In this document: in pieces, positions 2,814 to 50,768 of the stretch
How the letters are laid out: every line of letters begins with the position of its first letter
Position numbering within the stretch: the first letter of the stretch is position 1
Source: an uncultured Pseudomonadota bacterium
Lineage (GTDB): Bacteria > Pseudomonadota > Alphaproteobacteria > RF32 > CAG-239
Direction of reading: 5' to 3'
NCBI GenBank assembly: GCA_949295995.1
Contig: CASFNK010000063.1
Coordinates: forward strand, 73 to 64,072
DNA length: 64,000 nt
Made by a program: the position numbers and the translations under genes
The notes under the pieces: generated by a model
The model's database searches: none
What the model saw: only the letters and a program-made list of their open reading frames with translations
Told to the model about the DNA's origin: nothing

Positions 2814-2855
2814 AAAAAAGCCTGAAGACATTGCTGTCCTCAGGCTTTTGTTTTT
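2814..2855. terminator. Bidirectional intrinsic terminator between convergent genes
   Basis: A-run, stem GCCTGA...TCAGGC (2820-2845), then TTTTGTTTTT. Confidence 0.7.
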
Positions 2856-3696
2856 ACTCTCCCAGATAATACCACTCAGTATTGATTGGAGCATTTAAGT
2901 TAGGCAGCAAAATAAAGCCATCTTCCGGCGCTACTAAAATCTCACCATCATCATAAATTGCGATGTGTTCACCTTTCTTGATTGGGTCGAGATGCTTATA
3001 ATTTTTGCAAAGTTTTCCTTCCTTTGTCTTTAAGACATAACTTTTGAGCTTAATGTGCGTTTTCTTCTTTGCCTCAGGGTGAGGGACATCAATCATGTCA
3101 AATGCCGCTAAGGTAGAAAGGATTGCTTGGTAAGCAATTTCAATCGCTTTGGGCTCTTTGTGGTAGCCACATTCCAAAGTAGTTGCTGTATTTGAGCAAA
3201 CATGAGCATATTGCTCGGTAGAGCAATCTTGAATGGTTGTATCTTGGCTGTAAATTTCGGGCCAACCTTCTAACACAAAATCGACATCTAAGGCAGAGAT
3301 AAGTTTTTGATTATATTCATCAGGATAATCGCAAAAAGCAAACGGCACATCTCCGATACAGTGCGTTGAGTGCAAATCCAAAGTCAAGCGATGAGATTGT
3401 ATAAGTTCGCAAATCTCATTGGCGAGACCTTGTTCGTATGTTTGAGGGGTAGGGTGGGGCACAATCACCCGATTTAAGTTTTCCTCAATACAACGCACAT
3501 CTTTTTTATAGGCCTTAGGGTTGCAAATCGGCACTAAGGTTAAAGAACCTTGCGTTAGCTTGAGTTGACCAGATTGAAATTCTTGAATAACGCGGCGGCA
3601 AGCATTCACCCCTGCGGTTTCATTTCCGTGAACGGCAGCCAAAACCAAAAGACCAAGTCCGTCTTTTTTTCCTTTAAATTCAAATTTATCAAGCAT
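2854..3696 (-). CDS. Succinylglutamate desuccinylase/aspartoacylase-family zinc hydrolase
   Basis: 280-aa ORF. The N-terminal AAVHGNETAG (H-x-x-E zinc site) and later LDLHSTH are typical of the AstE/AspA carboxypeptidase-like family. Confidence 0.75.
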   Translation of the reverse strand: MLDKFEFKGKKDGLGLLVLAAVHGNETAGVNACRRVIQEFQSGQLKLTQGSLTLVPICNPKAYKKDVRCIEENLNRVIVPHPTPQTYEQGLANEICELIQSHRLTLDLHSTHCIGDVPFAFCDYPDEYNQKLISALDVDFVLEGWPEIYSQDTTIQDCSTEQYAHVCSNTATTLECGYHKEPKAIEIAYQAILSTLAAFDMIDVPHPEAKKKTHIKLKSYVLKTKEGKLCKNYKHLDPIKKGEHIAIYDDGEILVAPEDGFILLPNLNAPINTEWYYLGE

Positions 3697-3723
3697 AAAC
3701 TTTCCTTGAATAAAATATCAGGT

Positions 3724-3888
3724 TTAGAAATTAGCTTCTTTTACGGCTTTATCCGTTGCAAAGTCGGAAGTTCTTTGCACGGTATTGTTAAATGAGGTCA
3801 TAACACTGTCAAAATAATGGTTATCGTAAAGCCATTTTCCGCCATAAGCCAAAGCCGCCAAAATCACGAGAATCACAAAACCTTTCAT
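3724..3888 (-). CDS. Small membrane/secreted protein (54 aa), below the ORF-track length cut-off
   Basis: Hand translation: MKGFVILVILAALAYGGKWLYDNHYFDSVMTSFNNTVQRTSDFATDKAVKEANF. Strong RBS (AAGGAGG, 7 nt upstream) and a hydrophobic N-terminus. Confidence 0.55.
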   Translation of the reverse strand: MKGFVILVILAALAYGGKWLYDNHYFDSVMTSFNNTVQRTSDFATDKAVKEANF

Positions 3889-4006
3889 AATAAACCTCCT
3901 TATTTTTACTCAATCATAATACAGAAGAATAAAAAAGGCGAGATAAAAAAATATTTTGAAAAATAAAAAAGAAAAAGACAAAATTTTTTTGTTTTGAAAA
4001 TAAATA

Positions 4007-4035
4007 TTGACAAGATAGTATGAATCTGGTATTCT
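4007..4035 (+). promoter_or_regulatory. Candidate sigma70-type promoter upstream of the FHA mini-protein gene
   Basis: TTGACA (4007-4012), 17-nt spacer, TATTCT (4030-4035), in a very AT-rich intergenic region. Confidence 0.4.
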
Positions 4036-4179
4036 AAAATCAGTATTTTAGGATTATGTTTTTATTATTCTGTGTTTTTTGTAATTTTGAATTAAGAGAA
4101 ATCTTTATTTAAAATCTTGCACGAATAATTAACATATTTTGAAAAGAAAAAATAATGTTTCACTATAAAATTCAAAATT

Positions 4180-4500
4180 ATGACAACTCAAGAATTATTA
4201 AACAAGGTAAAGAACAATGGACGTAGTTTACAACTGATTTATGTAGGTACAGGCTTACCAATCATCGGTCTGTCTCCAAAGTGTGATATTGGTGAATTGA
4301 TGAGCATAAACTTACAGGCTTTTTCTTATCGTTTATATTCGCTAAAAGATGGTGAAGCCTTTGTCATTGGACGAGATGAAAGTTGTGATTTCGTCTTATC
4401 GGAAGATATACGGTTCTCAAGGTTTCATTGTATGATAACCCTTGTAGGCAAGAATTATTATATTTATGACTGTTCTTTATGCGGAACAATCATAAAATAA
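4180..4500 (+). CDS. Stand-alone FHA-domain protein
   Basis: 106-aa ORF. AFVIGRDESCDFVLSEDIRFSRFHCMI...YYIYDCSLCGT fits the FHA core pattern (G-R ... S-R-x-H ... D-x-S-x-N-G-T-like). Confidence 0.65.
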   Translation: MTTQELLNKVKNNGRSLQLIYVGTGLPIIGLSPKCDIGELMSINLQAFSYRLYSLKDGEAFVIGRDESCDFVLSEDIRFSRFHCMITLVGKNYYIYDCSLCGTIIK

Positions 4501-4521
4501 AATTCCGATATCCTAAAAGAA

Positions 4522-4555
4522 AGAGCTCAATCTCATCAGAGATTGAGCTCTTTTT
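4522..4555 (+). terminator. Intrinsic terminator after the FHA gene
   Basis: 13-bp stem AGAGCTCAATCTC/GAGATTGAGCTCT, 4-nt loop, T5. Confidence 0.8.
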
Positions 4556-4641
4556 GAGTAAGTTTTTTATTTACAAAAACAAAATTTTATGCCAAATTAG
4601 CGTTCATAACAAATATTATTAACCTCAAAAATATACTAAGT

Positions 4642-5631
4642 ATGAATATTTTTATGGAAAAAAAGAGCTGTTTGGTTAAAAAGATTAAGCAAACAGACAA
4701 TGGTTGGAATTTATATCCTATTGATGAGGAAGAAAAGCCTATCTTCATCAGTCGCGAAAATTATTCAGGTGATATGCCGCCGTTTTTCAAATGGCCGTGG
4801 CAAAAGGTCAGGTTGGAAGTTATCCAAATAGACGATTTCCAAGTCTCAGCCTCAATAGATGGTATTAAGCTGTTTGAAATTCAGGAGAAAGATTTTCCCG
4901 AAGAAATCAAAAAAAGACTGAGCTATGGAGAACAACTGCAAAAAGACTATGAAGAAAAACAGAACAAGGCCAATGAAGCTATCCTCAAAGCATTGAACGA
5001 ATATTTGCAAACATGGCCACAAAACCCGCATTTGGAAAGTCAAATTTCCGAGCTTAAAATCTGTTTTCGCCCTTATCTTCAACTTCATCTTTTTAAGGGA
5101 CCAAACGCGCCGGAGTATGTCCAAAAAGTGAATCTAATGGCAAAACTTTGTGAAATGGCGCAAAGAATTTATTATCGCCATTTTGATGAAAAAAGCCTAC
5201 TTGGTACAGCGTCCGCATATTGGAAATATGGCATGCCGGTATTTGGAGAGCCATTCCCTCATTATACTTTACGGGCAGAAGAAATAGAACAAGCCGTAAA
5301 TGATCAGAGCAAAACAGATATAACTTTGGAGGAGTATTATGAAGCCGATAGGCTTCTAACAGAAGTTCTTCCACCGATAGAAGATGAGTTGTTGAAACGC
5401 TACCTCAATTATACGGTGAGGGACGTTTTGCGGTATTATGCCAAAGACTTGAACGAATTGAGCTCTCATTATTTAACTGATGCTTGGGATAAGCGAATTT
5501 GCACGGATGAACGCGAATATCAACGCCAATTTGAAAGAATGAAGTTATTGAAATATCATTCGCTGATTTTACCCGAACAATTTTCCGACCAAACAATCAA
5601 AAACTTTATTGGCAGTTATACGCTAAAGTAA
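4642..5631 (+). CDS. Hypothetical protein (329 aa), no family recognised
   Basis: Long uninterrupted ORF with a terminator downstream. Possible start at the second ATG (MEKKS). Confidence 0.55.
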   Translation: MNIFMEKKSCLVKKIKQTDNGWNLYPIDEEEKPIFISRENYSGDMPPFFKWPWQKVRLEVIQIDDFQVSASIDGIKLFEIQEKDFPEEIKKRLSYGEQLQKDYEEKQNKANEAILKALNEYLQTWPQNPHLESQISELKICFRPYLQLHLFKGPNAPEYVQKVNLMAKLCEMAQRIYYRHFDEKSLLGTASAYWKYGMPVFGEPFPHYTLRAEEIEQAVNDQSKTDITLEEYYEADRLLTEVLPPIEDELLKRYLNYTVRDVLRYYAKDLNELSSHYLTDAWDKRICTDEREYQRQFERMKLLKYHSLILPEQFSDQTIKNFIGSYTLK

Positions 5632-5641
5632 TTGTCATTAC

Positions 5642-5676
5642 CAAAACCCCAAATCTTGTATGGATTTGGGGTTTTG
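5642..5676 (+). terminator. Hairpin terminator after ORF 4642..5631
   Basis: 14-bp stem CAAAACCCCAAATC/GATTTGGGGTTTTG. Confidence 0.65.
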
Positions 5677-5703
5677 CTTATCTTGTATGATTAAATGTAA
5701 AAA

Positions 5704-5746
5704 GGTGCGAAGGGGTGGATTCGAACCACCCTTGGTTCCTCCAGGG
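5704..5746 (-). pseudogene. Isolated tRNA 3'-half (T-arm plus acceptor 3' strand, tRNA-Leu-like); no intact 5' half
   Basis: The minus strand reads GGTGG-TTCGAAT-CCACC-CCTTCGC-A-CC. That is a T stem-loop, a 7-nt acceptor strand, discriminator A and a partial CCA. Upstream sequence cannot be folded into D and anticodon arms. Confidence 0.5.
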
Positions 5747-6015
5747 ATATTAAAATACCATTTCACTCTATTTGCCTACAGCCTAACATCATTTACACCA
5801 TGTCTTCGCAGGAACCACGATGTTAAGATTGCATAAAATTCAGCTTCCATATATATTCCTCCAAAAATAAAAATATTTTCAAAGTTAATAAATAATGTTA
5901 AGCTGAAAGCAAACTCGATATGAAAAGATATAAAAATATTTAGCCCCAAACGCTCTATTCCAATAGCATGTATTACTATTTTTGAAAAATTCAATACTTG
6001 TAAAAAAATTTAGAA

Positions 6016-6056
6016 GGAAACAAAAGAAAAAGCAGCCATTTTCATGGCTGCCTTGT
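6016..6056 (-). repeat. Hairpin-terminator repeat, copy a (downstream of the methyltransferase gene)
   Basis: GGAAACAAAAGAAAAA + GCAGCCAT-TTTC-ATGGCTGC. It shares its flank with copy b and its stem-loop with copy d. Confidence 0.6.
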
Positions 6057-6110
6057 AAATGAGTAATACCGACCTCATGGTTTATGAGCAAATATTCTTT
6101 TCTCCTACGT

Positions 6111-6983
6111 TTATTTTTTCTTACAAATATAGAGTAGGTGAGCACTATATCCCTGTTGGTCAGCTCTTTCGCAAGTCAAAAAATGCCATTTTAAGAACGT
6201 TTGATACCCTTCTTCGGATAATTGCGCAAGCTGTTCTTTCATAGCATAAGCTATTCCATCTGTTGCAACATTGGTAATATACTCCGTATTTAAATTGTTA
6301 AATAATTTTTTAAAATCTTCGATATTAAAACAATTAAATATCTCTTCGGGAACATCCTTAAATCGACCAGCGTCATCCATTAGTTCTTTTAAGTTTTCAG
6401 CCTTCAGATGACACAGTCCATAACCTAACATAATTGCCGCACAAGGAATATATGCAAACATACATATTCCTCCTTTTTTTGCAACACGAATTGTTTCCTT
6501 AACAGCTTTTTCCTTATCTTCTTGATGAAAAAGATGATACATTGGTCCCAAATTGAGAACCAAATCAAAGGATGCATCTTCAAACATACTTAAATCCAGA
6601 GCATCAGCAACCATACATCTAAAGTTACTCATTCCCTGAGATTTAGATTTCATAATCTCAACATGCTTAGGAGTCAAATCAACAGCCGTAACGTCATATC
6701 CCATTTTTGCTAAAGCAATAGAATAGCGACCAGTTGCAGCCCCAATTTCCAAAATTTTAGCTCCTGGTTTTAAGAATTTTTGAATATATCGCATGGTGGT
6801 TAAATACTCAACATTATGCCCTCTATCACTTACTAAGCGAGCATCTTCATCATATTCTGTGTATTTATTTATGATGATGTCTTTATGCTTATTTACCCCC
6901 ATGTTTTGTGTTCCTTTCAAAACTTCTTTTTGAATAATTAGATTGTTTTGCTTCATAAAATAATAATTTAAAAGGTTAGACAA
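6111..6983 (-). CDS. Class I SAM-dependent methyltransferase
   Basis: 290-aa ORF with motif I ILEIGAATGRYS and an acidic post-I residue (VTAVDL). The ATG at 6956 (MKQNN) is a plausible alternative start. Confidence 0.8.
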   Translation of the reverse strand: MSNLLNYYFMKQNNLIIQKEVLKGTQNMGVNKHKDIIINKYTEYDEDARLVSDRGHNVEYLTTMRYIQKFLKPGAKILEIGAATGRYSIALAKMGYDVTAVDLTPKHVEIMKSKSQGMSNFRCMVADALDLSMFEDASFDLVLNLGPMYHLFHQEDKEKAVKETIRVAKKGGICMFAYIPCAAIMLGYGLCHLKAENLKELMDDAGRFKDVPEEIFNCFNIEDFKKLFNNLNTEYITNVATDGIAYAMKEQLAQLSEEGYQTFLKWHFLTCERADQQGYSAHLLYICKKK

Positions 6984-7122
6984 TAATTAAATTTCCTCGT
7001 TATTATAAGGAAATAATTGCAAAAGTAAAGAAAAAGAAATGAATCATTTTTTATTTACTTTTCAAAATGAAGACTTATAATACGAGCGAAATAAATATAA
7101 TTGTATCACCTAATAAATTTTT

Positions 7123-7476
7123 ATGCGTATGAAAAATGTAAAAAAATTATTGTTCGTTTTGATGGCACCTCTATTTGTACTTGTGGTGTCAGGTGCATTG
7201 TCAATAACACATGAGTTAAATTGGCGGAGTATCATTTTCTTTATATGTGTAAGTAGCATCTTAGGAATACTTTTGGCTTATAGAAACCCTAAGAAGCTAA
7301 TAGATGCGGGGTTAGGCTGGATTTTTTCCGGTGTACTTTTTGCACTTATAGCAACAAAAGGACTGCTGGGGGGTTATACTAAATTGTTTGAAACCGTGGC
7401 ATTGGCAATATTTGCCTTTACCATGTTTTTCATTTGTATGCCCAGCATTACAAAATCACAAAAACAGAAGCCTTAA
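7123..7476 (+). CDS. Small integral membrane protein (117 aa)
   Basis: Four hydrophobic segments, with its own terminator at 7464-7492. It is the only + strand gene in the islet. Confidence 0.55.
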   Translation: MRMKNVKKLLFVLMAPLFVLVVSGALSITHELNWRSIIFFICVSSILGILLAYRNPKKLIDAGLGWIFSGVLFALIATKGLLGGYTKLFETVALAIFAFTMFFICMPSITKSQKQKP

Positions 7477-7520
7477 AAAGCTTCTGTTTTTTAGAATATA
7501 AAAGCGAATATAAGGAAAGA

Positions 7521-7560
7521 GAAACAAAAGAAAAGGCAGCTATAATATTAGCTGCCCTTT
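7521..7560 (-). repeat. Hairpin-terminator repeat, copy b
   Basis: GAAACAAAAGAAAA + GGCAGCTA-TAAT-ATTAGCTGCC. The flank is nearly identical to copy a. Confidence 0.55.
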
Positions 7561-7577
7561 ACATTAAGATATGTATA

Positions 7578-7853
7578 TTAATTTTTTGAAAATTGATTTT
7601 TCATCTGTAATTGTTTTAAATTAATTTTTTCCAGTCCTTTCTTTCCCATAGATAATCCATGCTTTTGCAAATCAAGAACATGTTGCTTCATAAAAGCTTG
7701 TTCTGAATCACCCAATTTTTCATTATTGTGTTTTTTTGTTAACAAATCCTGATAGACCATATTTTCAATAACAACTTGTCTGAGAGCAGATCTTTCTCCT
7801 CGAATTACGCGAGCACGATCAATACCGGTGTGCGCCACACCTGTAAGTTCCAT
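7578..7853 (-). CDS. Hypothetical ORF overlapping the SDR 3' end in another frame; possibly a remnant of a disrupted SDR gene
   Basis: 91-aa ORF that overlaps 7819..8493 by 35 nt in a different frame. No motif recognised. Confidence 0.3.
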   Translation of the reverse strand: MELTGVAHTGIDRARVIRGERSALRQVVIENMVYQDLLTKKHNNEKLGDSEQAFMKQHVLDLQKHGLSMGKKGLEKINLKQLQMKNQFSKN

Positions 7854-8493
7854 CTCCTTGCTGAACGAGTGGAGGGAGGATATCTTTTAAGTCAACTATA
7901 CCATTATATTGAGTATTTAATTTACCGTTTTTATCAAAAGAATAGTTAAGAGTTTGCCCTTGTGTTCCTGAATTGGTATCATTTTCAACGGTATTAACAG
8001 TTGCTAAATCATTTTGCACACATTCTCTAAAAGTTGTAATGGCATGTTTGCTGGCACAATAGACTGGACAAAATTCTTCTATAACAACAGCTGACTGCGA
8101 TGTAACGTTTATAATTTGTCCAAACTTCTGCTTTTTCATTGTTGGAACAATCAATTGAGTACAAGCAATTGTTCCAAATGTATTAACATCCAAAACATTT
8201 TTAATCTGCTCTAACGTGTTTTCCTCAATATTTCCTTGCAACCACACACCAGCACAATTTATCAAACAATCAATTGTTTCAAAATCTTTACCAATCTTTT
8301 CAAATGCATTTTTTAAGCTCTCAATATTAGTCAAATCACAATGGTAATATTGGCAACCAAATTCTTTAGCAACTTTTTCAGATTTGCAATCATCTTTTGC
8401 CAATATAATTACATTATGATTACTAGAAAACTGCTTTACTAACTCTCTTCCTAATCCGTCATTTCCACCAGTTATGATTAATGTCTTTTTCAT
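7819..8493 (-). CDS. Short-chain dehydrogenase/reductase (SDR) with a non-canonical C-terminus
   Basis: TGGNDGLG (TGxxxGxG), NCAG and YCASK (YxxxK) are present. After about residue 165 the sequence no longer resembles an SDR. Confidence 0.7.
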   Translation of the reverse strand: MKKTLIITGGNDGLGRELVKQFSSNHNVIILAKDDCKSEKVAKEFGCQYYHCDLTNIESLKNAFEKIGKDFETIDCLINCAGVWLQGNIEENTLEQIKNVLDVNTFGTIACTQLIVPTMKKQKFGQIINVTSQSAVVIEEFCPVYCASKHAITTFRECVQNDLATVNTVENDTNSGTQGQTLNYSFDKNGKLNTQYNGIVDLKDILPPLVQQGDGTYRCGAHRY

Positions 8494-8542
8494 AAAATCC
8501 TCAACTAAACGAACTTAACATTCTAGATTTTAAAAGGAAACG

Positions 8543-8617
8543 ACAAAAAATCAATAAAAAAGTTCGGACAAACCTAAAAAATGATGATTTTTGAAAAAGA
8601 AACATCCGAACACAAGA
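8543..8617 (-). repeat. 75-bp promoter-like module, copy A (upstream of the SDR gene)
   Basis: 69 of 75 nt identical to 10755-10829. It contains the inverted repeat GTTCGGA...TCCGAAC. On the - strand, TTGATT is followed by a possible -10 (TAAAAT). Confidence 0.7.
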
Positions 8618-8638
8618 AAATTCTTAATAATAAAAACA

Positions 8639-8685
8639 ACGACAGTCCTTTTCAAGACTGCCGTTTGAATTGGTGATACTAACGC
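8639..8685 (-). repeat. Hairpin-terminator repeat, copy c, with ATCACCAAT flank
   Basis: The minus strand reads GTATCACCAATTCAAAC-GGCAGTC-TTGAAAAG-GACTGTCG-TTGTTTTT. It is homologous to copy d. Confidence 0.6.
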
Positions 8686-8818
8686 AATGAATTTCGAACT
8701 TTTACTTTCTCCTGAGTATTATCTAGCAACAATGAGTTTGTATGAAGAAATTAAAAGAAATAATATTAAGCCTCTGAATTTATTACAAACATTGATAATG
8801 ACATTTCATTAAATGAGG

Positions 8819-9139
8819 CTATATATTATAAAAATTAGTAAAATAGATATATCTCGCTAAATAAACAAGAGTCGGTATGGATAGAATTATATAGGCTTTT
8901 TTGAGATTTGTTTTACGCTTTTCCCAAGCATAAACTGTAGGTGCAATTATTATCAATAAATCTATTATTGTAAAAATGGTATAGTTAAATTTATTTTCAT
9001 ATGCCCAACCTAATGCCTCTGCTTTCCATGGCATTTGGTTGCTGCTCATTTCTTTTGGATATGTTATGGCATATATAAAAACGAAAAATCCATTTAAGGC
9101 TAATAATAGATAAAAAGGTATTAGTTTGATTTTTTTCAT
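8819..9139 (-). CDS. Small polytopic membrane protein; candidate immunity partner of the upstream toxin-like gene
   Basis: The ORF track gives 8819..9181. The ATG at 9139 (MKKIKLIPF) has RBS GAAGGTG. There are three to four hydrophobic helices. It lies immediately downstream of 9203..9922. Confidence 0.5.
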   Translation of the reverse strand: MKKIKLIPFYLLLALNGFFVFIYAITYPKEMSSNQMPWKAEALGWAYENKFNYTIFTIIDLLIIIAPTVYAWEKRKTNLKKAYIILSIPTLVYLARYIYFTNFYNI

Positions 9140-9202
9140 AATTGCACCTTCGGTTAAATTTGTGCAAAGTATATTCAGCATTTACCTTAAATACAATAAA
9201 AA

Positions 9203-9922
9203 TCACCAACAATCTTTATCATATTTTACATTAAGAATCATATCGTACCCATATTTCTTAAATTTATCTGTAAATTCATCCATCTTATCTGTTAAATCAA
9301 TACACCCTCCAGAGCCATAATCTTTACCGCCATGAATAGAAATCCTTGTTCTGTTTTTATTATCTGTTCCTTGAGCAGGTTCCAACCAAATGCGGTTATT
9401 TCCCCAGGAATCTTTTCCTCCGGGCCATTCTCCTCCCCCAAGATTATTTTTTAATTTATCCCATATTGTTTGAGTTTGGTCATAATTCTGATGTTGAGAT
9501 TGTCTCACCAACCATTTTCCCTCCGGTAATGGCCCTTTATCTTTTACGCTGACATATTCTTTACATTGATAATCTGGCTTACCGGACATTCCTTTCCATG
9601 AGTTTGTCTTTTTATCATCTTCAAACCAAGAAAGTTCTCTTCCGTTAAATTCTAAACGCGAAGGTTTATTTTGGGATATTTCTTGATTTAATGAATTAAT
9701 GGTTTCACCATCTTTTTTCATTATTCCATCAATGGTTAAATTATTTTTTCTTTGATATGTTTTTATCCCTTCAAATAACTCATTATCTGGATATTCCGTC
9801 ATTCCATATGATGGCACATCATATGCACCAAATTTTTTTAGATAGTTTTTTAGCGGAAGCATATCTTCCATAGCTACTGCTGAAGATGATGCTACATCTT
9901 TGTTTAATTTAAATTGTGACAT
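9203..9922 (-). CDS. Peptidoglycan-binding domain fused to a Tlde1/DUF2778-like L,D-transpeptidase-fold domain (toxin-like)
   Basis: The N-terminal half FEGIKTYQRKNNLTIDGIMKKDGET is PG_binding_1-like. The C-terminal half has GPLPEGKW...IWLEP...RISIHGGKDYGSGGCIDL, matching the YkuD/Tlde1 H...G-C catalytic signature. No signal peptide was seen. Confidence 0.65.
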   Translation of the reverse strand: MSQFKLNKDVASSSAVAMEDMLPLKNYLKKFGAYDVPSYGMTEYPDNELFEGIKTYQRKNNLTIDGIMKKDGETINSLNQEISQNKPSRLEFNGRELSWFEDDKKTNSWKGMSGKPDYQCKEYVSVKDKGPLPEGKWLVRQSQHQNYDQTQTIWDKLKNNLGGGEWPGGKDSWGNNRIWLEPAQGTDNKNRTRISIHGGKDYGSGGCIDLTDKMDEFTDKFKKYGYDMILNVKYDKDCW

Positions 9923-9954
9923 ATTTTTTCCTTATTCTTTGTTAATTTTAGATA

Positions 9955-9988
9955 CAAAAAAAACGTTGATTTTCATCAACGGTTTTTA
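9955..9988. terminator. Bidirectional hairpin terminator about 35 nt upstream of the toxin-like gene
   Basis: A-run, stem CGTTGAT/ATCAACG, T-run (T8 on the - strand). Confidence 0.65.
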
Positions 9989-10205
9989 AACGCACTTTTC
10001 CCAAGTGGCATTTTATATTTTACAATATTTTCTATTTAAAGTAAAGGAAAAAATTCCTATATTGTGGGTAATTATGATTAGTTAGATTATTTCTTCTCAA
10101 CAGAGTTTCGGCAACAAGATTGACTAGTTCTTTGCTTTGCTCCTCACATACGCCAACTTTTACTTTGTTCAGCTCGAACTCTACTCACTCAAATCTCGGG
10201 GATAA

Positions 10206-10258
10206 CACCAATACAAAAACACTCCCGAAAATCGAGGGTGTTGCGATTGGTGATACTT
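10206..10258 (-). repeat. Hairpin repeat, copy e, flanked by inverted CACCAAT/ATTGGTG
   Basis: The minus strand reads GTATCACCAAT-CGCA-[ACACCCTCG-ATTTT-CGGGAGTGT]-TTTTGT-ATTGGTG. It lies directly after the NUDIX stop. Confidence 0.55.
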
Positions 10259-10280
10259 AACTCACGCTTTACGAGCTAAT

Positions 10281-10715
10281 TTATGAATTAAATTCAGAAA
10301 AAGTTACACCATTTATAAAATTTTCAATAGCACAACGAGCATACGGAGTTATATTTTCGGGCAAATTATCTAAAGGTAACCATTCTAATCTTTCACAAAC
10401 ATAAGGCTCATTATTAACAGGCTCTCCTTGAAGATTTTTAACCGTAACAACATATTCAATAGAATTCCAACCATCAGGACAAACACGATGTATAGAACTT
10501 ACAACATCAATATCGGCTTTTGCTGCATCAAGACCAATCTCTTCTTTTATTTCTCTAACAATGGCCATGGATACTGTTTCATTTTCTTCCATTCTTCCGC
10601 CGACTAAATTAAAATTACTGGCATCGGGCTTATTTTTTCTTAAAATCGTAAGTATTTTGTTATCCCTGATAATAAGAGCCAATACACAGCCCCAAAGTTT
10701 AAAACGTTCATTCAT
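10281..10715 (-). CDS. NUDIX hydrolase
   Basis: Nudix box GGRMEENETVSMAIVREIKEEIGL (GX5EX7REUXEEXGU). The track start is 10730, but the ATG at 10715 is preceded by GGAGG. Confidence 0.85.
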   Translation of the reverse strand: MNERFKLWGCVLALIIRDNKILTILRKNKPDASNFNLVGGRMEENETVSMAIVREIKEEIGLDAAKADIDVVSSIHRVCPDGWNSIEYVVTVKNLQGEPVNNEPYVCERLEWLPLDNLPENITPYARCAIENFINGVTFSEFNS

Positions 10716-10754
10716 ATTTTGTACCTCCATAACAACAATTTTGTATTACTAACT

Positions 10755-10829
10755 ACAAAAAATCAATAAAAAACTTCGGACAAATTGAAAAAATGATGAT
10801 TTTTGAAAAAGGAACATCCGAACTCAAGA
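10755..10829 (-). repeat. 75-bp promoter-like module, copy B (upstream of the NUDIX gene)
   Basis: 69 of 75 nt identical to 8543-8617. Confidence 0.7.
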
Positions 10830-10937
10830 TAAGCCTTGGAAATAAAAGAACCTTCTCTTAGCTTTGCTAGGCTTTAGCCTAAGCCAAAGGTTAATTGGTC
10901 GCGCAAGTAGGAAACTTGTTTCCGTAGCGGCGCAAAC

Positions 10938-10972
10938 AGCAGCCATTTTCATGACTGCTGTTTGAATTGGTG
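10938..10972 (-). repeat. Hairpin repeat, copy d
   Basis: The minus strand reads CACCAATTCAAAC-AGCAGTCATGAAAATGGCTGCTG-TTTG. The stem-loop is nearly identical to copy a and the flank to copy c. Confidence 0.6.
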
Positions 10973-11085
10973 TCTTGCTTCGTAAGGTTTGCCTTATAAG
11001 GCAAACCAACTTCGCTTCGGGCACTTGACTTGTAACATCGCATTCGGAAAGCTGTCGCGTTCCTCAGCGTTTAACAAGTCGGCAC

Positions 11086-11132
11086 ATCACCACTAAAAAA
11101 AGCGCCTTAATGGCGCTTTTTTTAGTGGTGAT
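11086..11132. terminator. Perfect 21-bp inverted repeat (bidirectional terminator) that includes the last 7 nt of tRNA-Glu
   Basis: ATCACCACTAAAAAAAGCGCC-TTAAT-GGCGCTTTTTTTAGTGGTGAT. Confidence 0.75.
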
Positions 11133-11201
11133 CCCAACGAGATTCGAACTCGTGTTACCGCCGTGAAAGGGCGATGTCCTAGGCCTCTAGACGATGGGAC
11201 C
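11126..11201 (-). tRNA. tRNA-Glu (anticodon TTC)
   Basis: The reverse complement GGTCCCATCGTCTAGAGGCCTAGGACATCGCCCTTTCACGGCGGTAACACGAGTTCGAATCTCGTTGGGATCACCA folds as a cloverleaf. The anticodon loop is CTTTCAC and CCA is encoded. It is very close to known bacterial tRNA-Glu. Confidence 0.93.
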
Positions 11202-11219
11202 ATCAAAAGTACGAAAGCA

Positions 11220-11248
11220 TATATACTTGTAATTTTTTATAAGGTCAA
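11220..11248 (-). promoter_or_regulatory. Candidate promoter of tRNA-Glu
   Basis: On the - strand: TTGACC, 17-nt spacer, TATATA, about 18 nt upstream of the mature 5' end. Confidence 0.45.
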
Positions 11249-11346
11249 GTAAAAAAACACCAAAATAATGATTTTTTTTACAAATTTACAAAAAACAAAG
11301 AAAATCAATACATTAAAAACATAAATTTCCTTCATTAAATGTTTTC

Positions 11347-12000
11347 TCAGGCAGCAAGAGCGTTATTTTCCTTATTATAATTAATATCATCAAAAATAAC
11401 GGGAATTTCGGCTTTTAATTTAGCTAAGAGCATATCCATAACTTCTTGTACTGTTGGATGAGCTGCCGGAGCGCAACGAAGTTTGAAAATATGGCGCCAT
11501 TCTCTTAAATTAGCTGTCATAATAACATCGGCCTTTGTGGAATGAGGCAAAAGCATTCTAAGTTGGTCGGGGCGACAACCCAAAGCAGCCATTTCGTTAT
11601 AATTTTTTTCGATTAATTGCATGGTTTTAAGCCATAAATCATATTCAGGTGTATTTTCTTTAATATGGCAAGGCTTAATAACGGAAAGTTCGTTACCGAA
11701 TTTTCCTTTTGAGTAGTTGCAATAACGAGTGCTCTCGATGGCAAAGGATACATGGCGGTGTCTGGTCAAATCTTTATAAACCCCAATATCGCAAGTGAGT
11801 TTGACGGTAAGATTATAATGTTCAATCATAGCCTCATGTCCGAGTTCAAGCAATTTTTTAACCATAGTGCGAGCTGAAACGGGTGTAATTTTATCTTCAC
11901 TTTTGTAACAGTTGCGAGCGCAAAGTTCCAGATGTTTTAAGATAGCTTCTCCATCCAAGGGGGTAATAATCTCAACATGAGGTTCAACAATTTTAACCAT
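11347..12000 (-). CDS. thyX: FAD-dependent thymidylate synthase
   Basis: ThyX signature RHRHVSFAIESTRY (RHRxxSxxxxSxRY); 217 aa. Confidence 0.93.
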   Translation of the reverse strand: MVKIVEPHVEIITPLDGEAILKHLELCARNCYKSEDKITPVSARTMVKKLLELGHEAMIEHYNLTVKLTCDIGVYKDLTRHRHVSFAIESTRYCNYSKGKFGNELSVIKPCHIKENTPEYDLWLKTMQLIEKNYNEMAALGCRPDQLRMLLPHSTKADVIMTANLREWRHIFKLRCAPAAHPTVQEVMDMLLAKLKAEIPVIFDDINYNKENNALAA

Positions 12001-12078
12001 TTTTAGATATCCTTTTCATAAAACTGAAAACAGTTTATATATATTACAAGCAAACGTCTAGTTTTAAAGGAAAGTTAT

Positions 12079-12118
12079 ACAACAAAAGGCGAAGAATTGC
12101 GTCTTCGCCTTTTGTTGT
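12079..12118. terminator. Bidirectional terminator
   Basis: Long stem ACAACAAAAGGCGAAGA/TCTTCGCCTTTTGTTGT. Confidence 0.75.
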
Positions 12119-12122
12119 AAAA

Positions 12123-12383
12123 TTATAAATACTCATCTAATTTTTTTGAGAGTTTTACAAATAGAGCAATTGTTCCGATTAAAATAATGATAGAAAGGGG
12201 AGGCCAATCAATAATTTTTGAAACAATTGTCATCAACCATCCACCAAACAGACATAGCCCCACCAGCAAAACAGCTTGAATAAAGAGCCATATCACAAAT
12301 TTTAAAAGAGCTTTAATCCACTTCATAATATAAAAATTATAGGTTATTAAGCACTCTATAATCTTTTTTTTATGATTTTGCAA
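12123..12383 (-). CDS. Small membrane protein
   Basis: 86-aa ORF (likely start MKWIKALL) with two long hydrophobic helices. Confidence 0.45.
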   Translation of the reverse strand: MQNHKKKIIECLITYNFYIMKWIKALLKFVIWLFIQAVLLVGLCLFGGWLMTIVSKIIDWPPLSIIILIGTIALFVKLSKKLDEYL

Positions 12384-12414
12384 TCATTATTCATTATTTA
12401 AATTACAAAAAACA

Positions 12415-12437
12415 AACCCCCACGCAAAGTGGGGGTT
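12415..12437 (-). terminator. Intrinsic terminator after the lipoprotein gene
   Basis: On the - strand: AACCCCCAC-TTTGC-GTGGGGGTT followed by TGTTTTTTG. Confidence 0.75.
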
Positions 12438-12455
12438 AAAGATAATGATAGAAAC

Positions 12456-12911
12456 CTAGTCAGGAATGACTCTGGCTCTATCCCCAAAGATAATCTGACA
12501 ACGTTGTCCGGGGTTGAGTAAGACATCTCCGCCTTGAGTGGTTGAAACGGTGCTTCCGTTATCCAAGCGAACCACATATTCATAACCATATTGGGATGTC
12601 ATTTCCTTTTGAGCAAAGTCTCCGGCAATTCCGCCTAAGATTGCGCCACCGACAGCCCCCAACAGGTGAGCAGTATTTCCGCCGCCGATTTGAGAACCGG
12701 CCAAACCGCCGGCAATACCACCGACTGCGGTACCGACGCCGTTTTGCGTAGCCACTTGAATCGGTCTGACGGAAACAACCGTGCAACCTTGAGCTTGAGC
12801 CACTTGTCCGACGGAACTCGTGCTGTAATAGTTAGAGTTAATATCGCTTGCGCAACCGCTCAAAGAAGCCAGAGCGAAAGGCAAAGCCATTAAAAGAGTC
12901 GATTTGTTCAT
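12456..12911 (-). CDS. Glycine-zipper outer-membrane lipoprotein (17-kDa surface antigen/SlyB-like)
   Basis: Lipobox LASLSGC and the Gly-zipper tract GTAVGGIAGGLAGSQIGGG...GAVGGAILGGIAG. Confidence 0.85.
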   Translation of the reverse strand: MNKSTLLMALPFALASLSGCASDINSNYYSTSSVGQVAQAQGCTVVSVRPIQVATQNGVGTAVGGIAGGLAGSQIGGGNTAHLLGAVGGAILGGIAGDFAQKEMTSQYGYEYVVRLDNGSTVSTTQGGDVLLNPGQRCQIIFGDRARVIPD

Positions 12912-13082
12912 AACAGTCTCCTTGCAAAAATGAGAGTAGGTATATATTTATCCATGGATTAACATTTGTCAATGCTGGACAATTAAAGATAAGTGATATA
13001 TATTAGCCTCCGCGATGGTAAAATTATCGTAAAAAGAATAAATCTCATACAAGAATAAAGGTAATAATTGAGGAAATTTAAG

Positions 13083-45763: not shown

Positions 45764-46002
45764 AAGATTTTATCTCCCAAGCATTTACAAGCATAGTCGC
45801 GATAGAGCCGCAAATGATTCTGTAAGACATTGCAATGAGACAAATTTGTTCTCTGCTTTGCAATTTCCTTAGTGTACTTATAGCAAATTCTATCCAAGGA
45901 GGGCAAGCAAGAAATATCACTTTTGATAGGGAATATGTCAAATTTTAATTCTTTCGCCCAAAGAGCTTTAAGACTTAAATAAAAATAACCTTTATCAGTC
46001 AT
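45760..46002 (-). CDS. Hypothetical Cys-rich 80-aa protein
   Basis: Its start overlaps the repressor stop (TAATG) and its stop overlaps the next start (ATGA). No motif recognised. Confidence 0.4.
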   Translation of the reverse strand: MTDKGYFYLSLKALWAKELKFDIFPIKSDISCLPSLDRICYKYTKEIAKQRTNLSHCNVLQNHLRLYRDYACKCLGDKIL

Positions 46003-46622
46003 TATTGTTCAGCCCAAACGATTCGATTAATGAGTCTGATATCATTTATTTTGACCTGTGTTTCCTGGCTTGGATTTAATATATCGCCAAAAACGATTGT
46101 GGAAGTAGTACGGTGTTTAAATTCTTTAATTAAAGGATTTTTATTATGAAGCAACACAATGACGCGGTCCCCTTTTCTGACTTCGAGATCTTTAGTTGCC
46201 ACCAAAGTACTTCCTTTACGGTAAAGAGGTTCAAAATCGGCCGTGTCCAAATTAATTGCATAGAGGTTTACGCTACTGTCCGGAAATTGAACCTTATCCC
46301 ACTTTTCCGTAAGCAGTTTAGATGTTTTGATTGAGGCATGAGTAGATAAATCTGAATAAGTAACAAAAGGAATACCATTAGGTTTAGGAGTTAAATCTTC
46401 ATCAATGAGTTGATAGAATTGCTCAAAAGAAATATTGCAAGCCTCCAAAATTTTATTAATGCTGTCAAGGGAAGGCCAGCGTTTTTTTCCATCATGACGC
46501 ATACGTTTGCTTTTGTTGAAAGTTGTAGCATCCAGACCGGCTTTTTTAGCCAAGCCCGAAGGGGATAGACCATGTAATTTTGCCAACTTATCAACAGCAT
46601 CCCAAACTTGTTCGTATTCCAT
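46002..46622 (-). CDS. CI/LexA-like repressor: HTH plus an S24-peptidase-like C-terminal domain
   Basis: N-terminal HTH (LSPSGLAKKAGLDATTFNKSKR). The C-terminal beta domain aligns by eye to the LexA/CI cleavage domain (RKGDRVIVLL...LIKEF). Confidence 0.8.
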   Translation of the reverse strand: MEYEQVWDAVDKLAKLHGLSPSGLAKKAGLDATTFNKSKRMRHDGKKRWPSLDSINKILEACNISFEQFYQLIDEDLTPKPNGIPFVTYSDLSTHASIKTSKLLTEKWDKVQFPDSSVNLYAINLDTADFEPLYRKGSTLVATKDLEVRKGDRVIVLLHNKNPLIKEFKHRTTSTIVFGDILNPSQETQVKINDIRLINRIVWAEQ

Positions 46623-46741
46623 AATTCCTCCTTATTTTCTCAGGGTTAGAGATAATATGTGATAACTATACAACAAAAAATATTAGGAATCAATTCTTTT
46701 TTATGTTGAAATTCCTACAACCTAATATATAACAATAACAA

Positions 46742-46756
46742 TTAACGATTAGTTAA
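46742..46756. promoter_or_regulatory. CtrA-type box TTAA-N7-TTAA
   Basis: TTAACGATTAGTTAA(G), 30 nt upstream of the ATG at 46786. Confidence 0.4.
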
Positions 46757-46785
46757 GATAGAATAATGAAACTGGGGGTTACTAA

Positions 46786-47121
46786 ATGCGAGAGGATTAT
46801 GAGCCTTTTGAAAACGCTGAAGAGGTTTGGTTTTGGTTTTGCGGCTGTGTTATGGCAAGAGATGGCGGATTGCGTTCCTGCAATGATTTCAAAGGAAAAA
46901 TCAGAAATTGTGAAGTGGCGGATATTTATCGCATCATAAAGAAGATGAAGCTAAACCATCAAATCACCAATCGCCACCTTAGGGTAATGGTTAAATGGGG
47001 ACAGCTTGAGTGCTCGCCCTATTACCACTATCGCGCCAAAAGAAGCGAAATCAGACTCTGGGATGAAGGCTTGCACGCACTGGAAGGCTGGCTTTTGTCT
47101 AAGGGAATAATTAGCCTATGA
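46786..47121 (+). CDS. Hypothetical small protein, first gene of the phage-like cluster (regulator candidate)
   Basis: 111 aa. It is Trp/Cys-rich at the N-terminus and basic in the middle. It overlaps the next ORF by 4 nt. Confidence 0.5.
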   Translation: MREDYEPFENAEEVWFWFCGCVMARDGGLRSCNDFKGKIRNCEVADIYRIIKKMKLNHQITNRHLRVMVKWGQLECSPYYHYRAKRSEIRLWDEGLHALEGWLLSKGIISL

Positions 47122-47531
47122 GGTTGGATGTATTTGCCCCCAAGGATTGCGAGCAATGTTACGTTGTTTTTGCCGATAACACGACTTTATGGTGGTTAAG
47201 ACTCCTCAAGCCCGGATTCAGGCATTGCTATATTTTGTTAAAGCTCCGAGGAAGCGGGCTCTGGGTGGAGCTTAATCCTTTATCTAATCAAACATCTGTT
47301 TTTGTTTATGAATATCCTGCTACATTTGATTTTGCCGATTATGTTCGTCGGAGTCGGAAAGTTATTTTATGCCCGATAGAGATAGTCCAAGCCCCGCTAA
47401 AATGTGCGCCGTTATCTTTCTTTACCTGTGTTGAATTTGTAAAGCGTGTCATAGGGTTACACGATTGTTTCACCCATACACCATGGCAGCTTTATAAAAA
47501 AATATTAAAAATTGTAGGAAAAAGTTCTTGA
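47118..47531 (+). CDS. Hypothetical protein (137 aa), second gene of the cluster
   Basis: Translationally coupled (ATGA) to the preceding ORF. No motif recognised. Confidence 0.5.
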   Translation: MRLDVFAPKDCEQCYVVFADNTTLWWLRLLKPGFRHCYILLKLRGSGLWVELNPLSNQTSVFVYEYPATFDFADYVRRSRKVILCPIEIVQAPLKCAPLSFFTCVEFVKRVIGLHDCFTHTPWQLYKKILKIVGKSS

Positions 47532-47598
47532 CAAACGAAAAAAAATTTGCTACATACAAAATTGCCACTTGCTATTAGTGTGCCCAAAACAAAGTCAG

Positions 47599-47632
47599 AT
47601 TCGCAAGACGTTAAGTCTTAGCGAATTTTTTT
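47599..47632 (+). terminator. Strong intrinsic terminator between the two small ORFs and the packaging genes
   Basis: Stem ATTCGCAAGAC/GTCTT(A)GCGAAT (11 bp, one bulge), 5-nt loop, T6. It lies about 70 nt downstream of a TTGACA hexamer at 47528. Confidence 0.7.
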
Positions 47633-47666
47633 ATATCCCAAAACCTGTAAGAAGAAAGGAGTTAAA

Positions 47667-47984
47667 ATGCACTTCAAAAAGTCCAAGACATTGAAGTCCT
47701 TAAAGAAAAATTTGCAAAAGACTCTTCCCGAGAAGGTTTCACAGGTGTTAGAGAGTTATGAAACATTTTCGGAAAGACCGATTCCCGAAGATGCCAAAGG
47801 TTTTAGTGCACACCACAGCGCCTGTAAATCGGCAGTTACCCATGCTGAAACTTTGTTAAAGCTGGCCAAGTGGACGGAAGACGGAACATCAGAAAATACA
47901 ACTTCGTCGGGCACGGAAGATATTCTAAAATTGCTTGCGGAAGCGAGAGCTGAATTGGACGGTGCGGAAGATGAACCAGATTAG
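47667..47984 (+). CDS. Hypothetical protein in the small-terminase position
   Basis: 105 aa, RBS AAAGGAG, with a 3' end overlapping the terminase start. Assigned by position only. Confidence 0.35.
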   Translation: MHFKKSKTLKSLKKNLQKTLPEKVSQVLESYETFSERPIPEDAKGFSAHHSACKSAVTHAETLLKLAKWTEDGTSENTTSSGTEDILKLLAEARAELDGAEDEPD

Positions 47985-49458: not shown

Positions 49459-49463
49459 GGGAG

Positions 49464-49757
49464 TTGAAGATGTTTAATGAATTGATAAACTGGATAGCAA
49501 TGATTGAGTTGCCTCTTTTTGTAGCAGTTTTTCGGATGTTGGTCAAACAAAGAAAAGAAATGGAGGAACAACTCCTAGCCACTCAAAATCATACGGAGGG
49601 CAGGGTGGATATTTGTAAAGAATCATTAGCCGATTTCAAATTACATGTCGCCAGAAACTATGTTTCCACGGGCTATCTGAAAGATGTTGAAAATCGTTTA
49701 ACCAACCACTTGTTAAGGATTGAGAAAAAACTCGATGATGTCGGGAGGTCAAGATGA
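49464..49757 (+). CDS. N-terminal TM plus coiled-coil small protein (lysis accessory candidate)
   Basis: 97 aa with one hydrophobic helix (WIAMIELPLFVAVFRML) followed by a heptad-like region. It overlaps the lysin start by 4 nt. Confidence 0.45.
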   Translation: MKMFNELINWIAMIELPLFVAVFRMLVKQRKEMEEQLLATQNHTEGRVDICKESLADFKLHVARNYVSTGYLKDVENRLTNHLLRIEKKLDDVGRSR

Positions 49758-50766: not shown

Positions 50767-50768
50767 AG

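Follow-up and report, generated by a model that had tools for sequence, protein, structure and literature searches.

A 64-kb stretch of DNA from an uncultured alphaproteobacterium of the CAG-239 lineage (contig CASFNK010000063.1; the whole stretch is called the window here) carries, directly behind the 3' end of a tRNA-Glu gene, an array of small accessory gene units whose content changes from strain to strain. The array occupies positions 5685-11125, between the tRNA-Glu and a conserved gene for a protein of 329 amino acids (aa), and its units close with degenerate copies of the tRNA-Glu 3' end. We consider it probable that the 3' end of the tRNA-Glu gene acts here as a hotspot for insertion and that the region holds a tandem stack of small non-autonomous gene units brought there by site-specific recombination. 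A cassette array built by serial insertion next to the tRNA had already been proposed by a sequence-only reading of this DNA, and the comparison with related loci supports the proposal, since the locus is variable between fixed flanks and its repeats are locus-specific.

A variable array between fixed flanks

The array was compared with about a dozen informative related loci, which are labelled L001 and so on after the related contigs. The closest thyX loci belong to metagenome-assembled genomes (MAGs) labelled 'uncultured Alphaproteobacteria', with a ThyX identity of 88-95%, and the lineage reaches 'Proteobacteria bacterium CAG:495'. The arrangement at 5626-11233 is reproduced at 98-99.9% identity in contigs from other samples (L214, L215, L216, L217, L218) and is therefore not an assembly artefact. 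Contigs with an identical ThyX mostly stop right after the tRNA-Glu, which points to strain heterogeneity at that spot; since most assemblies break exactly there, MAGs would systematically miss the variation of the locus, which may be under-reported.

From the tRNA-Glu to the 329-aa gene the locus is hypervariable, and thyX, the tRNA-Glu and the distal core genes are fixed, both among conspecifics and among sister species (L008, L009, L010, L229). In its minimal form (L010) the locus consists of the tRNA-Glu, one hairpin and a convergent gene for a 117-aa membrane protein. L008 represents this minimal state plus one unit, for a membrane protein of 125 aa; the additions are a MarR plus nitroreductase unit in L009, and NUDIX, Tlde1/immunity and short-chain dehydrogenase (SDR) units in the window. 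The conspecific loci L001, L002 and L214 are unlike the window in content, with flanks that are 99.8-99.9% identical: in L002 the tRNA-Glu is immediately followed by another insert, of more than 5 kb, L001 has an extra unit devoid of any open reading frame (ORF), and L214 has the SDR intact, at 235 aa, with an 82-aa gene where the window has the 117-aa membrane gene. L002 and L214, the latter with an array running from NUDIX to methyltransferase, come from one sample. A second variable slot, from the membrane gene to the 329-aa gene, is filled by a methyltransferase in the window and by GNAT, cyclophilin-like, ABM and other genes in relatives. The locus thus shows two of the hallmarks of tRNA-associated islands, namely presence/absence polymorphism between conserved flanks and a site 3' of an intact tRNA. 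The features of the region, listed away from the tRNA, are the following.

11126-11201, minus strand: intact tRNA-Glu(TTC), the anchor of the array, just downstream of thyX (ARAGORN; Rfam tRNA, 57 bits)
10968-11125, minus strand: GC-rich (~46%) structured piece of 158 nt directly after the tRNA, which begins with a terminator hairpin and ends GACACCA
10218-10242 (after NUDIX) and 11092-11125 (directly after the tRNA): diverged hairpins, at the same place relative to the unit ends
6017-6060, 7521-7564, 8627-8670 and 10924-10967: hairpin family, four related copies
10933-10964, minus strand: hairpin hp1, CAAACAGCAGTCAT-GAAA-ATGGCTGCTGTTTG, -23 kcal/mol, preceded by ...ACACCA^ATT (the caret marks a join)
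10848-10932, minus strand: 85-nt insert, with two palindromes, that separates hp1 from the module, GC ~46%, non-coding
8539-8635 and 10751-10847: two copies of the module, 97 nt, 87% identity
10755-10847, minus strand: module copy 1, upstream of NUDIX, with a T-run, TTTTATTTCCAAGG and the dyad GTTCGGA..TCCGAA
10281-10730, minus strand: NUDIX hydrolase gene (Pfam PF00293, 1.3e-15); gene callers start it at 10715 (144 aa)
10248-10276, minus strand: end of the NUDIX unit, pseudo tRNA-Glu 3' end GCTCGTAAAGCGTGAGTTAAGTATCACCA, a motif that also closes unrelated units in L009, L211, L012 and L229
10102-10242, minus strand: diverged hairpin (10218-10242) and diverged dyad module AGAGTTCG...CGAAACTCT (10102-10182; dyad by inspection), opening the Tlde1/immunity unit
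9203-9922, minus strand: putative toxin gene, Tlde1-like/PG_binding_1, L,D-transpeptidase type (Tlde1 27.9 bits, Pfam cut-off 30.1; PG_binding_1 27 bits, cut-off 23)
8819-9181, minus strand: gene for a 120-aa multi-pass membrane protein, no family match
8671-8699, minus strand: end of the Tlde1/immunity unit, pseudo tRNA 3' end GTTCGAAATTCATTGCGTTAGTATCACCA
8543-8666, minus strand: hairpin hp2 (8638-8666) and module copy 2 (8543-8635), opening the SDR unit
7819-8493, minus strand: truncated SDR gene, whose homology to the 235-aa gene of L214 stops near 8000
7565-8000, minus strand: unrelated fragment of 435 nt in place of the SDR 3' end and unit end, also found in the independent contig L218
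7532-7560, minus strand: hairpin hp3, counterpart of the ancestral tRNA-Glu terminator, which in the minimal locus L010 lies against the membrane gene
7123-7476, plus strand: 117-aa membrane protein gene, separating the two variable slots
6111-6983, minus strand: S-adenosylmethionine (SAM)-dependent methyltransferase gene, in the second variable slot, beyond the membrane gene
5970-6054, minus strand: hairpin hp4 (6030-6054) and a degenerate module-like stretch (5970-6030), likened to the module by inspection (TTTTTCTTTTGTTTCC and TTTTTCAAAAAT in common)
5704-5746, minus strand: Leu-type tRNA 3' fragment (variable arm, T-arm, acceptor end) at the distal edge of the variable region
4642-5631, plus strand: conserved 329-aa gene, the distal flank, conserved in all sister species

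All the accessory genes named by the sequence-only reading (methyltransferase, membrane protein, SDR, immunity-like protein, Tlde1-like toxin and NUDIX hydrolase) are present where it had placed them, and the 117-aa membrane gene is the only one not co-oriented with the tRNA. That gene had also been counted as accessory cargo, which it is not: it is conserved in L008, L009, L010 and L229 at 81-93% DNA identity, that is, across the genus, and would not be a recent arrival. The idea of single-gene units fails for the Tlde1-like gene and its immunity-like partner, which form one two-gene unit; the 120-aa protein is a putative immunity protein by virtue of its position alone. The exact 144-aa NUDIX product is encoded on seven other contigs, and an exact-protein look-up gave no record for the version with the 149-aa start or for the Tlde1 protein. 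As for the SDR, its aberrant 3' end, noticed at the outset, is confirmed by comparison with the intact 235-aa gene of L214: the two agree completely as far as residue 164 or so, where the window copy passes into unrelated DNA. Within the fragment that follows, a 91-aa ORF (7578-7853) has no Pfam or PHROG match and is perhaps what remains of another cargo gene.

The region is also AT-rich, as had been said of it, with a GC content of 32.5% at 5685-11125 against 39.5% in the rest of the window (5.4-kb windows have a mean of 39.1%, with a standard deviation of 2.7). An ORF with an FHA domain (4180-4500) and the 329-aa gene, within the stretch 4001-5631, are AT-rich as well (31-38% GC) and, since the 329-aa gene is conserved, low GC alone is no marker of the island edge.

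The tRNA-Glu itself is affected in one conspecific: at L001 10750-10760 (window 11184-11242) 59 nt are gone, including the first 18 nt of the tRNA-Glu and the sequence upstream, a loss that would inactivate the tRNA and that reflects an error of scaffolding or else a genuine deletion variant.

Anatomy of the unit junctions

What the sequence-only reading had passed over is the pseudo tRNA-Glu 3' end that closes each unit. ATCACCA (11126-11132) represents the last 7 nt of the tRNA-Glu, CCA included, and is repeated at the unit ends, giving the direct repeats of the tRNA 3' end at unit boundaries that are expected of a tRNA-associated island. Read in the orientation of the tRNA, a junction consists of a degenerate copy of the tRNA-Glu 3' end terminating in ATCACCA, then AT, an NCNAAC box, a GC-rich hairpin, a T-run and, usually, the module. 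The ten unit ends, from seven loci, conform to [..TTCG(T/A)AA..TTAAG(Y)]ATCACCA^AT-NCNAAC-hairpin-T-run, where the mimic is a degenerate T-loop-to-CCA stretch of 26-29 nt and ATCACCA is exact in all ten. The tRNA-Glu end reads GTTCGAATCTCGTTGGGATCACCA, to be compared with GTTCGAAATTCATTGCGTTAGTATCACCA for the Tlde1/immunity tail and GCTCGTAAAGCGTGAGTTAAGTATCACCA for the NUDIX tail; the likeness of unit tails, and of the left arm of the module, to the 3' half of the tRNA was judged by eye, without statistics.

The tail TCGTAAANCGTGAGTTAAGYATCACCA is unlike the tRNA upstream of ATCACCA, yet it is common to unrelated cargos in four species: NUDIX (window, L229), a nitroreductase (L009), a 268-aa protein (L211) and a 188-aa protein (L012). 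Since it differs from the tRNA and stays the same across unrelated cargos, this tail appears, from its sequence, to belong to the mobile units, in the manner of an attP arm.

On the other side of the core, a stable hairpin follows in 19 of 21 junctions, with at least eight different stem sequences, so that it is the structure of the hairpin that is conserved and not its sequence. All four family hairpins of the window are intrinsic-terminator-like on the minus strand. The sequence-only reading was right about this family, and wrong about its position: given the direction of transcription, the hairpins, together with the module, open the units and do not close them. It had likewise recognised two copies of the module, as a near-identical element of 75 bp, which extends in fact over 97 nt at 87% identity. 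The leader formed by hairpin and module is a copy of what natively follows the tRNA-Glu.

The module is characterized by a dyad, AAGTTCGGA, 36 nt, TCCGAACTT, located 57-59 nt from the core. Its arms vary between lineages yet stay complementary, with five of the nine pairs changed on both sides, as also happened in 8 of 500 shuffles. The 54-bp dyad has the geometry of a serine-integrase attachment (att) site, and the T-arm-to-CCA portion of the tRNA is like a shorter half-site, a suggestive resemblance. Leader structures were taken from per-sequence folds and a hand-specified dyad in place of an RNAalifold consensus, as RNAalifold found no consensus structure on ten leaders, whose hairpins are out of register in the alignment. 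An Rfam search with E up to 1 (window 3000-13000, L002, L209) returned tRNA only, and no known RNA family on the hairpins, the module or the 158-nt and 85-nt pieces. A XerCD/dif-like use of the junction was considered and set aside, as by eye the junction agrees with the XerD arm of an Escherichia coli-type dif at only about 5 of 11 positions.

These repeats are specific to this kind of locus. The 20-nt hairpin core occurs twice in the 64 kb, against 0.00 expected from shuffles, and the 22-nt module core is found in the window only in its two places, against 0.01 expected; neither has further copies there. In viral contigs there were no matches to the module or to the end motif, and a 15-nt junction gave chance matches only. 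A module scan of a metagenome collection returned six matches, three of them true, and all three lie directly after a tRNA-Glu or inside such an array. The many dispersed copies typical of repetitive extragenic palindromes (REP), bacterial interspersed mosaic elements (BIME) or miniature inverted-repeat transposable elements (MITE) were thus not seen in the window or in the metagenome and viral scans. Both observations that the sequence-only reading had named as fatal to a cassette array, a syntenic locus of average composition and generic genome-wide repeats, are absent.

Comparison of the loci also reveals the same cargo in different surroundings, with breakpoints at the core. In L214 the SDR end is followed by a unit with the 82-aa gene and the methyltransferase, which in L229 comes after the NUDIX end instead; in both the join is exactly ATCACCA^ATTCAAACGGCAGTCGGTAAA. 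Different leaders follow the NUDIX tail in the window and in L229, where the membrane-gene unit is bounded by ...GCAATCACCA^ATTCAAAC. Between the window and L229 the methyltransferase block has 95.7% identity and the core flanks only 81-91%, an indication that cargo and core move separately. The block is on one side of the membrane gene in the window and on the other in L229; in the window it is bounded by about 50 nt in common with the upstream region of the membrane gene. The MarR plus nitroreductase unit of L009 is found again in L211, at 76% identity and with a different leader variant, where direct repeats of hairpin and module stand on both flanks.

The contig L211, which carries the longest array, goes from ~35% to over 50% GC at about 5600-9227 of its reverse complement, with tandem repeats of ~20 nt at 7640-7800; it represents either the cassette system in a quite different genome or a chimeric contig.

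Two highly palindromic non-coding pieces near the tRNA belong to the same picture. The 158-nt piece contains a 21-bp perfect inverted repeat (11086-11132), one arm of which includes the ATCACCA 3' end of the tRNA itself, and L229 shows a compensatory change in this repeat (ATCACCATT...AATGGTGAT against ATCACCACT...AGTGGTGAT). Since the same piece forms the 3' tail of the 125-aa gene unit in L008, it is probably a unit remnant in the window. The 85-nt insert, in turn, is present in L009 and L229, absent from L002, and partly duplicated in tandem (its first palindrome) in L001.

At the distal edge, the Leu-like tRNA 3' fragment reported at 5704-5746 was recognised again by inspection, from a variable-arm stem, a GGTGG-TTCGAAT-CCACC T-arm and a CCTTCGC-A-CC acceptor end, although ARAGORN and Rfam make no call on it. 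We take these features to fit a class II, Leu-type tRNA; with the tRNA-Glu the fragment has only the T-loop in common. It is identical in L214 and absent from L008, L009 and L010, and homology to relatives resumes at about 5681. It travels with the methyltransferase block, is missing in the sister species, and resembles a leftover att site that came in with that block.

Between the module-like stretch and this fragment lies a 24-codon ORF, MEAEFYAILTSWFLRRHGVNDVRL (5776-5850, minus strand), with a strong GGAGG ribosome-binding site, which is identical in L214.

Mode of insertion and rival explanations

In the mechanism that we favour, a unit would consist of a leader (terminator hairpin, T-run with CTTTTATTTYCAAG, ~54-bp dyad module), accessory genes, one or two in number, under a promoter of their own, and a tail that mimics the last 26-29 nt of the tRNA-Glu and ends in ATCACCA. 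A circular or donor copy of the unit would carry tail and leader as one attachment site, and a crossover with the tRNA end, in or next to ATCACCA^AT, would put the unit between the tRNA and its former neighbour. The incoming leader hairpin would become the new terminator of the tRNA, and the displaced junction would shift outward, leaving the newer units nearest the tRNA, an order with which the L002 insert directly on the tRNA agrees. Afterwards, the repeated junctions of 130 nt may serve as portable homology, through which homologous recombination would delete, swap and re-order units; the truncated SDR, the 82-aa gene in exchange for the membrane gene, and the two different placements of the methyltransferase relative to the membrane gene would be examples. 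The enzyme would act in trans, as a tyrosine or large serine integrase encoded elsewhere, which is the conservative reading, or as an HUH Rep protein of larger elements sharing the leader, which is the more novel one. What is observed is the anatomy of the junctions, the variability, the breakpoints and the lack of a recombinase among the window ORFs tested; the recombination at the core, the direction of growth and the supply in trans are inferred.

Several observations weigh against this mechanism. Neither Phage_integrase nor any other recombinase domain was found among the 30 largest ORFs of the window (all of those in 2854-12000 plus 20 further large ones), and no recombinase was found in the arrays of L008-L012, L210, L211 and L229 or inside the Rep elements that share the leader. 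No circular form of a small unit was recovered from the window and the fragments of its relatives, nor a precise pair of empty and filled sites for any one of them. At 7-9 nt the exact repeat is short, the distal tRNA fragment is of Leu and not of Glu type, and only about a dozen related loci bear on the question, most assemblies breaking at this very place. Finally, extra events are required for several boundaries that lie off the core. Such are the 85-nt insert that comes after hp1, L001 with its half module, the left edge of the 82-aa/methyltransferase unit, where the hairpin is broken within its loop, and the truncation of the SDR. Given these boundaries, the stack must have been reshaped by secondary events, most likely homologous recombination between junction repeats of 80-130 nt.

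A tentative version of the same scheme, which we hold to be possible and well short of likely, is that of an integrase-less cassette system: a leader family of hairpin, CTTTTATTTYCAAG and ~54-bp dyad would insert precisely at the CCA ends of tRNAs (Glu, Trp and others) without a tyrosine or serine integrase, via the HUH Rep of autonomous members or an unrecognised host enzyme, and miniature single-gene derivatives would be mobilised in trans. If true, this would represent a functional analogue of the integron, with a tRNA end as attI.

Close to it stands the proposal, rather unlikely in our view, that an HUH rolling-circle Rep and not an integrase is responsible. In this view the leader hairpin or dyad is where Rep would nick single-stranded DNA, before joining it beside tRNA 3' ends, the small units being non-autonomous derivatives of larger Rep-encoding elements, inserted under the direction of the hairpin; alternatively, the leader would be a replication or transfer origin on which the units hitch-hike. 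The proposal draws on a larger element at the same site in L002, which starts with the same hairpin and module and has a leader up to 100% identical over 80 nt to the cassette leaders of L001 and L211. This element encodes two DNA methyltransferase-like proteins and a 341-aa Rep-like protein, and no integrase. The widespread Rep-like family (~340 aa; L002 5671-6489, P0012-P0059) has invariant FLTL, HYH and YxxK motifs and falls just below the threshold of PF23343, the G2P/ORF2 replication-protein family (26.2 bits, threshold 27.8). The best fold matches of its C-terminal domain are the HUH nucleases SIRV1 ORF119, adeno-associated virus (AAV) Rep and circovirus Rep, with weak E values of 2e-3 to 2e-2; the fold model is weak overall (mean predicted local distance difference test, pLDDT, of 50), only residues 183-335 being usable, and a sequence search of the PDB with Rep gave no match.

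Elements of the form 'leader ... cargo ... Rep-tail', in which the Rep gene is followed by a conserved tail of ~150 nt, adjoin the 3' ends of four tRNAs in different organisms: Glu-TTC (L002, L210), Glu-CTC (L209), Trp (L236, L237) and one further tRNA (L235; L231 has a pseudo-copy of it). The architecture of the leader is common to all of them, with the dyad 57-59 nt after the tRNA end, and the covariation of the dyad arms described above also speaks for this proposal. Between leader and Rep-tail no integrase was found in L235, L210, L231 and L236, nor any recombinase among the ORFs of L231 and L235. Cargo of the Rep islands (L210, L231, L235, L236, L237, L240), most of which contain no integrase, includes DNA methyltransferases, restriction-modification, McrBC, a reverse transcriptase and a recurring three-gene DUF3768 operon. 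Against Rep as the inserting enzyme, the window itself encodes none, the right ends of the Rep elements lack the ATCACCA mimic of the small units, and no nick site was identified. Moreover, a Rep in an integrated element normally replicates or mobilises it beside a separate integration enzyme. In tRNA-integrating actinomycete elements, a rolling-circle Rep is paired with an integrase (PMC2440964).

Large serine recombinases were considered as the enzyme of the array and rejected, since the copy in L237 is separate and that in L240 is at a tRNA-Thr, neither being linked to the junctions. The former is essentially the single gene of a 2.4-kb mini-element (L237 13385-15808, against L236 14470-14473) inside a 262-aa ORF, in one of two contigs that are otherwise 99.97% identical.

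Returning to site-specific insertion, it has also to be weighed against a process with no dedicated recombinase, which we judge decidedly unlikely as the origin of the array. Here, DNA delivered by transformation, phages or gene-transfer agents would be incorporated by ordinary homologous recombination, like the 'minimal mobile elements' documented in Neisseria (PMC3082526). The conserved flanks and junction repeats, which are 80-100% identical over 80-130 nt, would provide usable homology; the rearrangements that break off the core, the ~50 nt shared by the methyltransferase block and the membrane-gene upstream region, and the failure to find a recombinase all speak for it. What such a process leaves unexplained is the mimic of the tRNA 3' end at each unit end, the ~29-nt non-tRNA tail conserved across unrelated cargos, the breakpoints exactly at ATCACCA^AT, and the same leader architecture after four tRNAs in different organisms. 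Homologous exchange probably acts as a secondary process, and not as the source of the array.

An array in which an IntI encoded at some other place acts on the hairpins as attC sites, in folded single-stranded form, is highly improbable. Small, mostly co-oriented ORFs separated by imperfect hairpins and lacking an adjacent integrase do recall the clusters of attC sites lacking integron-integrases (CALINs; PMC4889954). The sequence-only reading had found no integrase, no intI and no attC-type core; the first two statements stand, and the third needs correction, as GTTAAGY in the end motif (GTTAAGT) matches GTTRRRY, outside any attC arrangement. Taking as an attC site a complementary pair of R'' (RYYYAAC) and R' (GTTRRRY) 57-141 nt apart, there is none on either strand of 5601-11300, with 0.11 in shuffles. 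The hairpins are short, near-perfect stems of 8-14 bp with T-runs, that is, terminators; a terminator precedes each unit, units of relatives contain consensus promoters of their own (TTGACA-17-TATAAT in L009), and the anchor is a tRNA end and not attI. The array is not an integron or a CALIN.

Finally, a set of ordinary chromosomal genes with similar terminators and a duplicated promoter region is hardly credible: the hairpins are indeed good intrinsic terminators and the tRNA-Asp of this genome also ends in one, but content that varies between conspecifics and sister species, low GC, unit ends that mimic the tRNA end, and the same cargo beside different neighbours already contradict it.

Context and comparison with known systems

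Elsewhere in the window, a podovirus-like prophage or its remnant occupies 46002-57000 on the plus strand, up to a tRNA-Asp at 61708-61784; no integrase was found among the ORFs tested. Its features are the following.

46002-46622, minus strand: Cro/C1 plus S24 repressor
47935-49458: terminase large subunit
50769-52295: portal (Head-tail_con, 2e-137)
52522-53244: T7-type scaffold
53295-54134: capsid (Phage_capsid_2, 1e-75)
55063-56964: nozzle protein

The array is of interest because it offers gut alphaproteobacteria of this uncultured lineage a compact, rule-bound cassette site for diversification at the strain level. Its cargo encompasses a putative toxin/immunity pair of type VI secretion system (T6SS) type, a NUDIX hydrolase, a methyltransferase and an SDR and, in relatives, MarR with nitroreductase, GNATs, hydrolases, restriction-modification and other defence genes. 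If the units are mobilised as proposed, they would be a tractable case of integrase-less mini-elements bounded by att sites, whose junction motif could be used to mine for further arrays and which would allow an HUH Rep to be tested against an unlinked integrase at tRNA 3' ends.

Among known systems, integron arrays and CALINs (PMC4889954) share with the array the short, mostly co-oriented, unrelated accessory genes between hairpin-forming sites and, presumably, growth at the proximal end, and in CALINs the integrase may be absent as well. Contrary to them, the array has no intI, attI or attC, its units appear to have their own promoters, and its core is a tRNA 3' end.

HUH elements (IS200/IS605, IS91/ISCR, rolling-circle replicons, iOriT islands; 10.64898/2026.01.13.699239) resemble it in the leader hairpin or dyad beside a sequence-specific target, and in that autonomous relatives encode an HUH Rep and are outnumbered by non-autonomous derivatives. 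In our case the hairpin does stand next to a fixed target, whereas Rep is found in the larger relatives only and no transposase was found; this Rep is of the G2P/ORF2 replication-protein family and not of a known transposase or relaxase family, a defined nick site is missing, and the direct-repeat-like tail of the small units is not made by peel-and-paste or rolling-circle transposition.

The closest parallels are systems in which a single tRNA or tmRNA site is entered again and again, with older elements shifted outward and with partial-tRNA repeats and remnants lacking an integrase left behind (10.1101/2020.12.28.424599, PMC3146451, PMC5704250). The tycheposon islands of Prochlorococcus (10.1101/2020.12.28.424599) are, like the array, tRNA-anchored and hypervariable, with older elements pushed outward, partial tRNAs, degenerate remnants and niche-adaptive cargo. 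Tycheposons are defined by their own tyrosine (or other) recombinase and replication genes, whereas no unit of the window has either and the larger conspecific element has Rep and no recombinase; moreover, the repeat of the array is the extreme 3' end plus terminator, and not a longer partial tRNA.

The ssrA islands of Dehalococcoides, of ~10 kb or more, also lie in tandem downstream of a small RNA gene, with short direct repeats of its 3' end and a conserved non-gene motif just upstream of the repeat (PMC3146451). A large serine recombinase module adjoins attL in 16 of the 31 islands, and the half or so devoid of an integration module were suggested to be cis-mobilizable elements (CIMEs; PMC3146451). 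In contrast, no unit of the array carries a serine recombinase, those of L237 and L240 being independent or at another tRNA.

CIME accretion at the 3' ends of tRNA or other target genes, of the ICESt1 type (PMC5704250), likewise stacks units without integration genes, but with att-like ends, beside the target gene, and the repeats are copies of the 3' end of that gene. The units of the array, of 0.6-1.3 kb and one or two genes, are not like decayed integrative and conjugative (ICE) or integrative and mobilizable elements (IME); they have a dedicated common leader and tail, and no helper integrase is known. Even though the principle is thus related, the array differs from CIME accretion, the Dehalococcoides ssrA islands and the tycheposon islands by the lack of a linked integrase even in autonomous-looking relatives, by its miniature units, and by their dedicated leader and tail.

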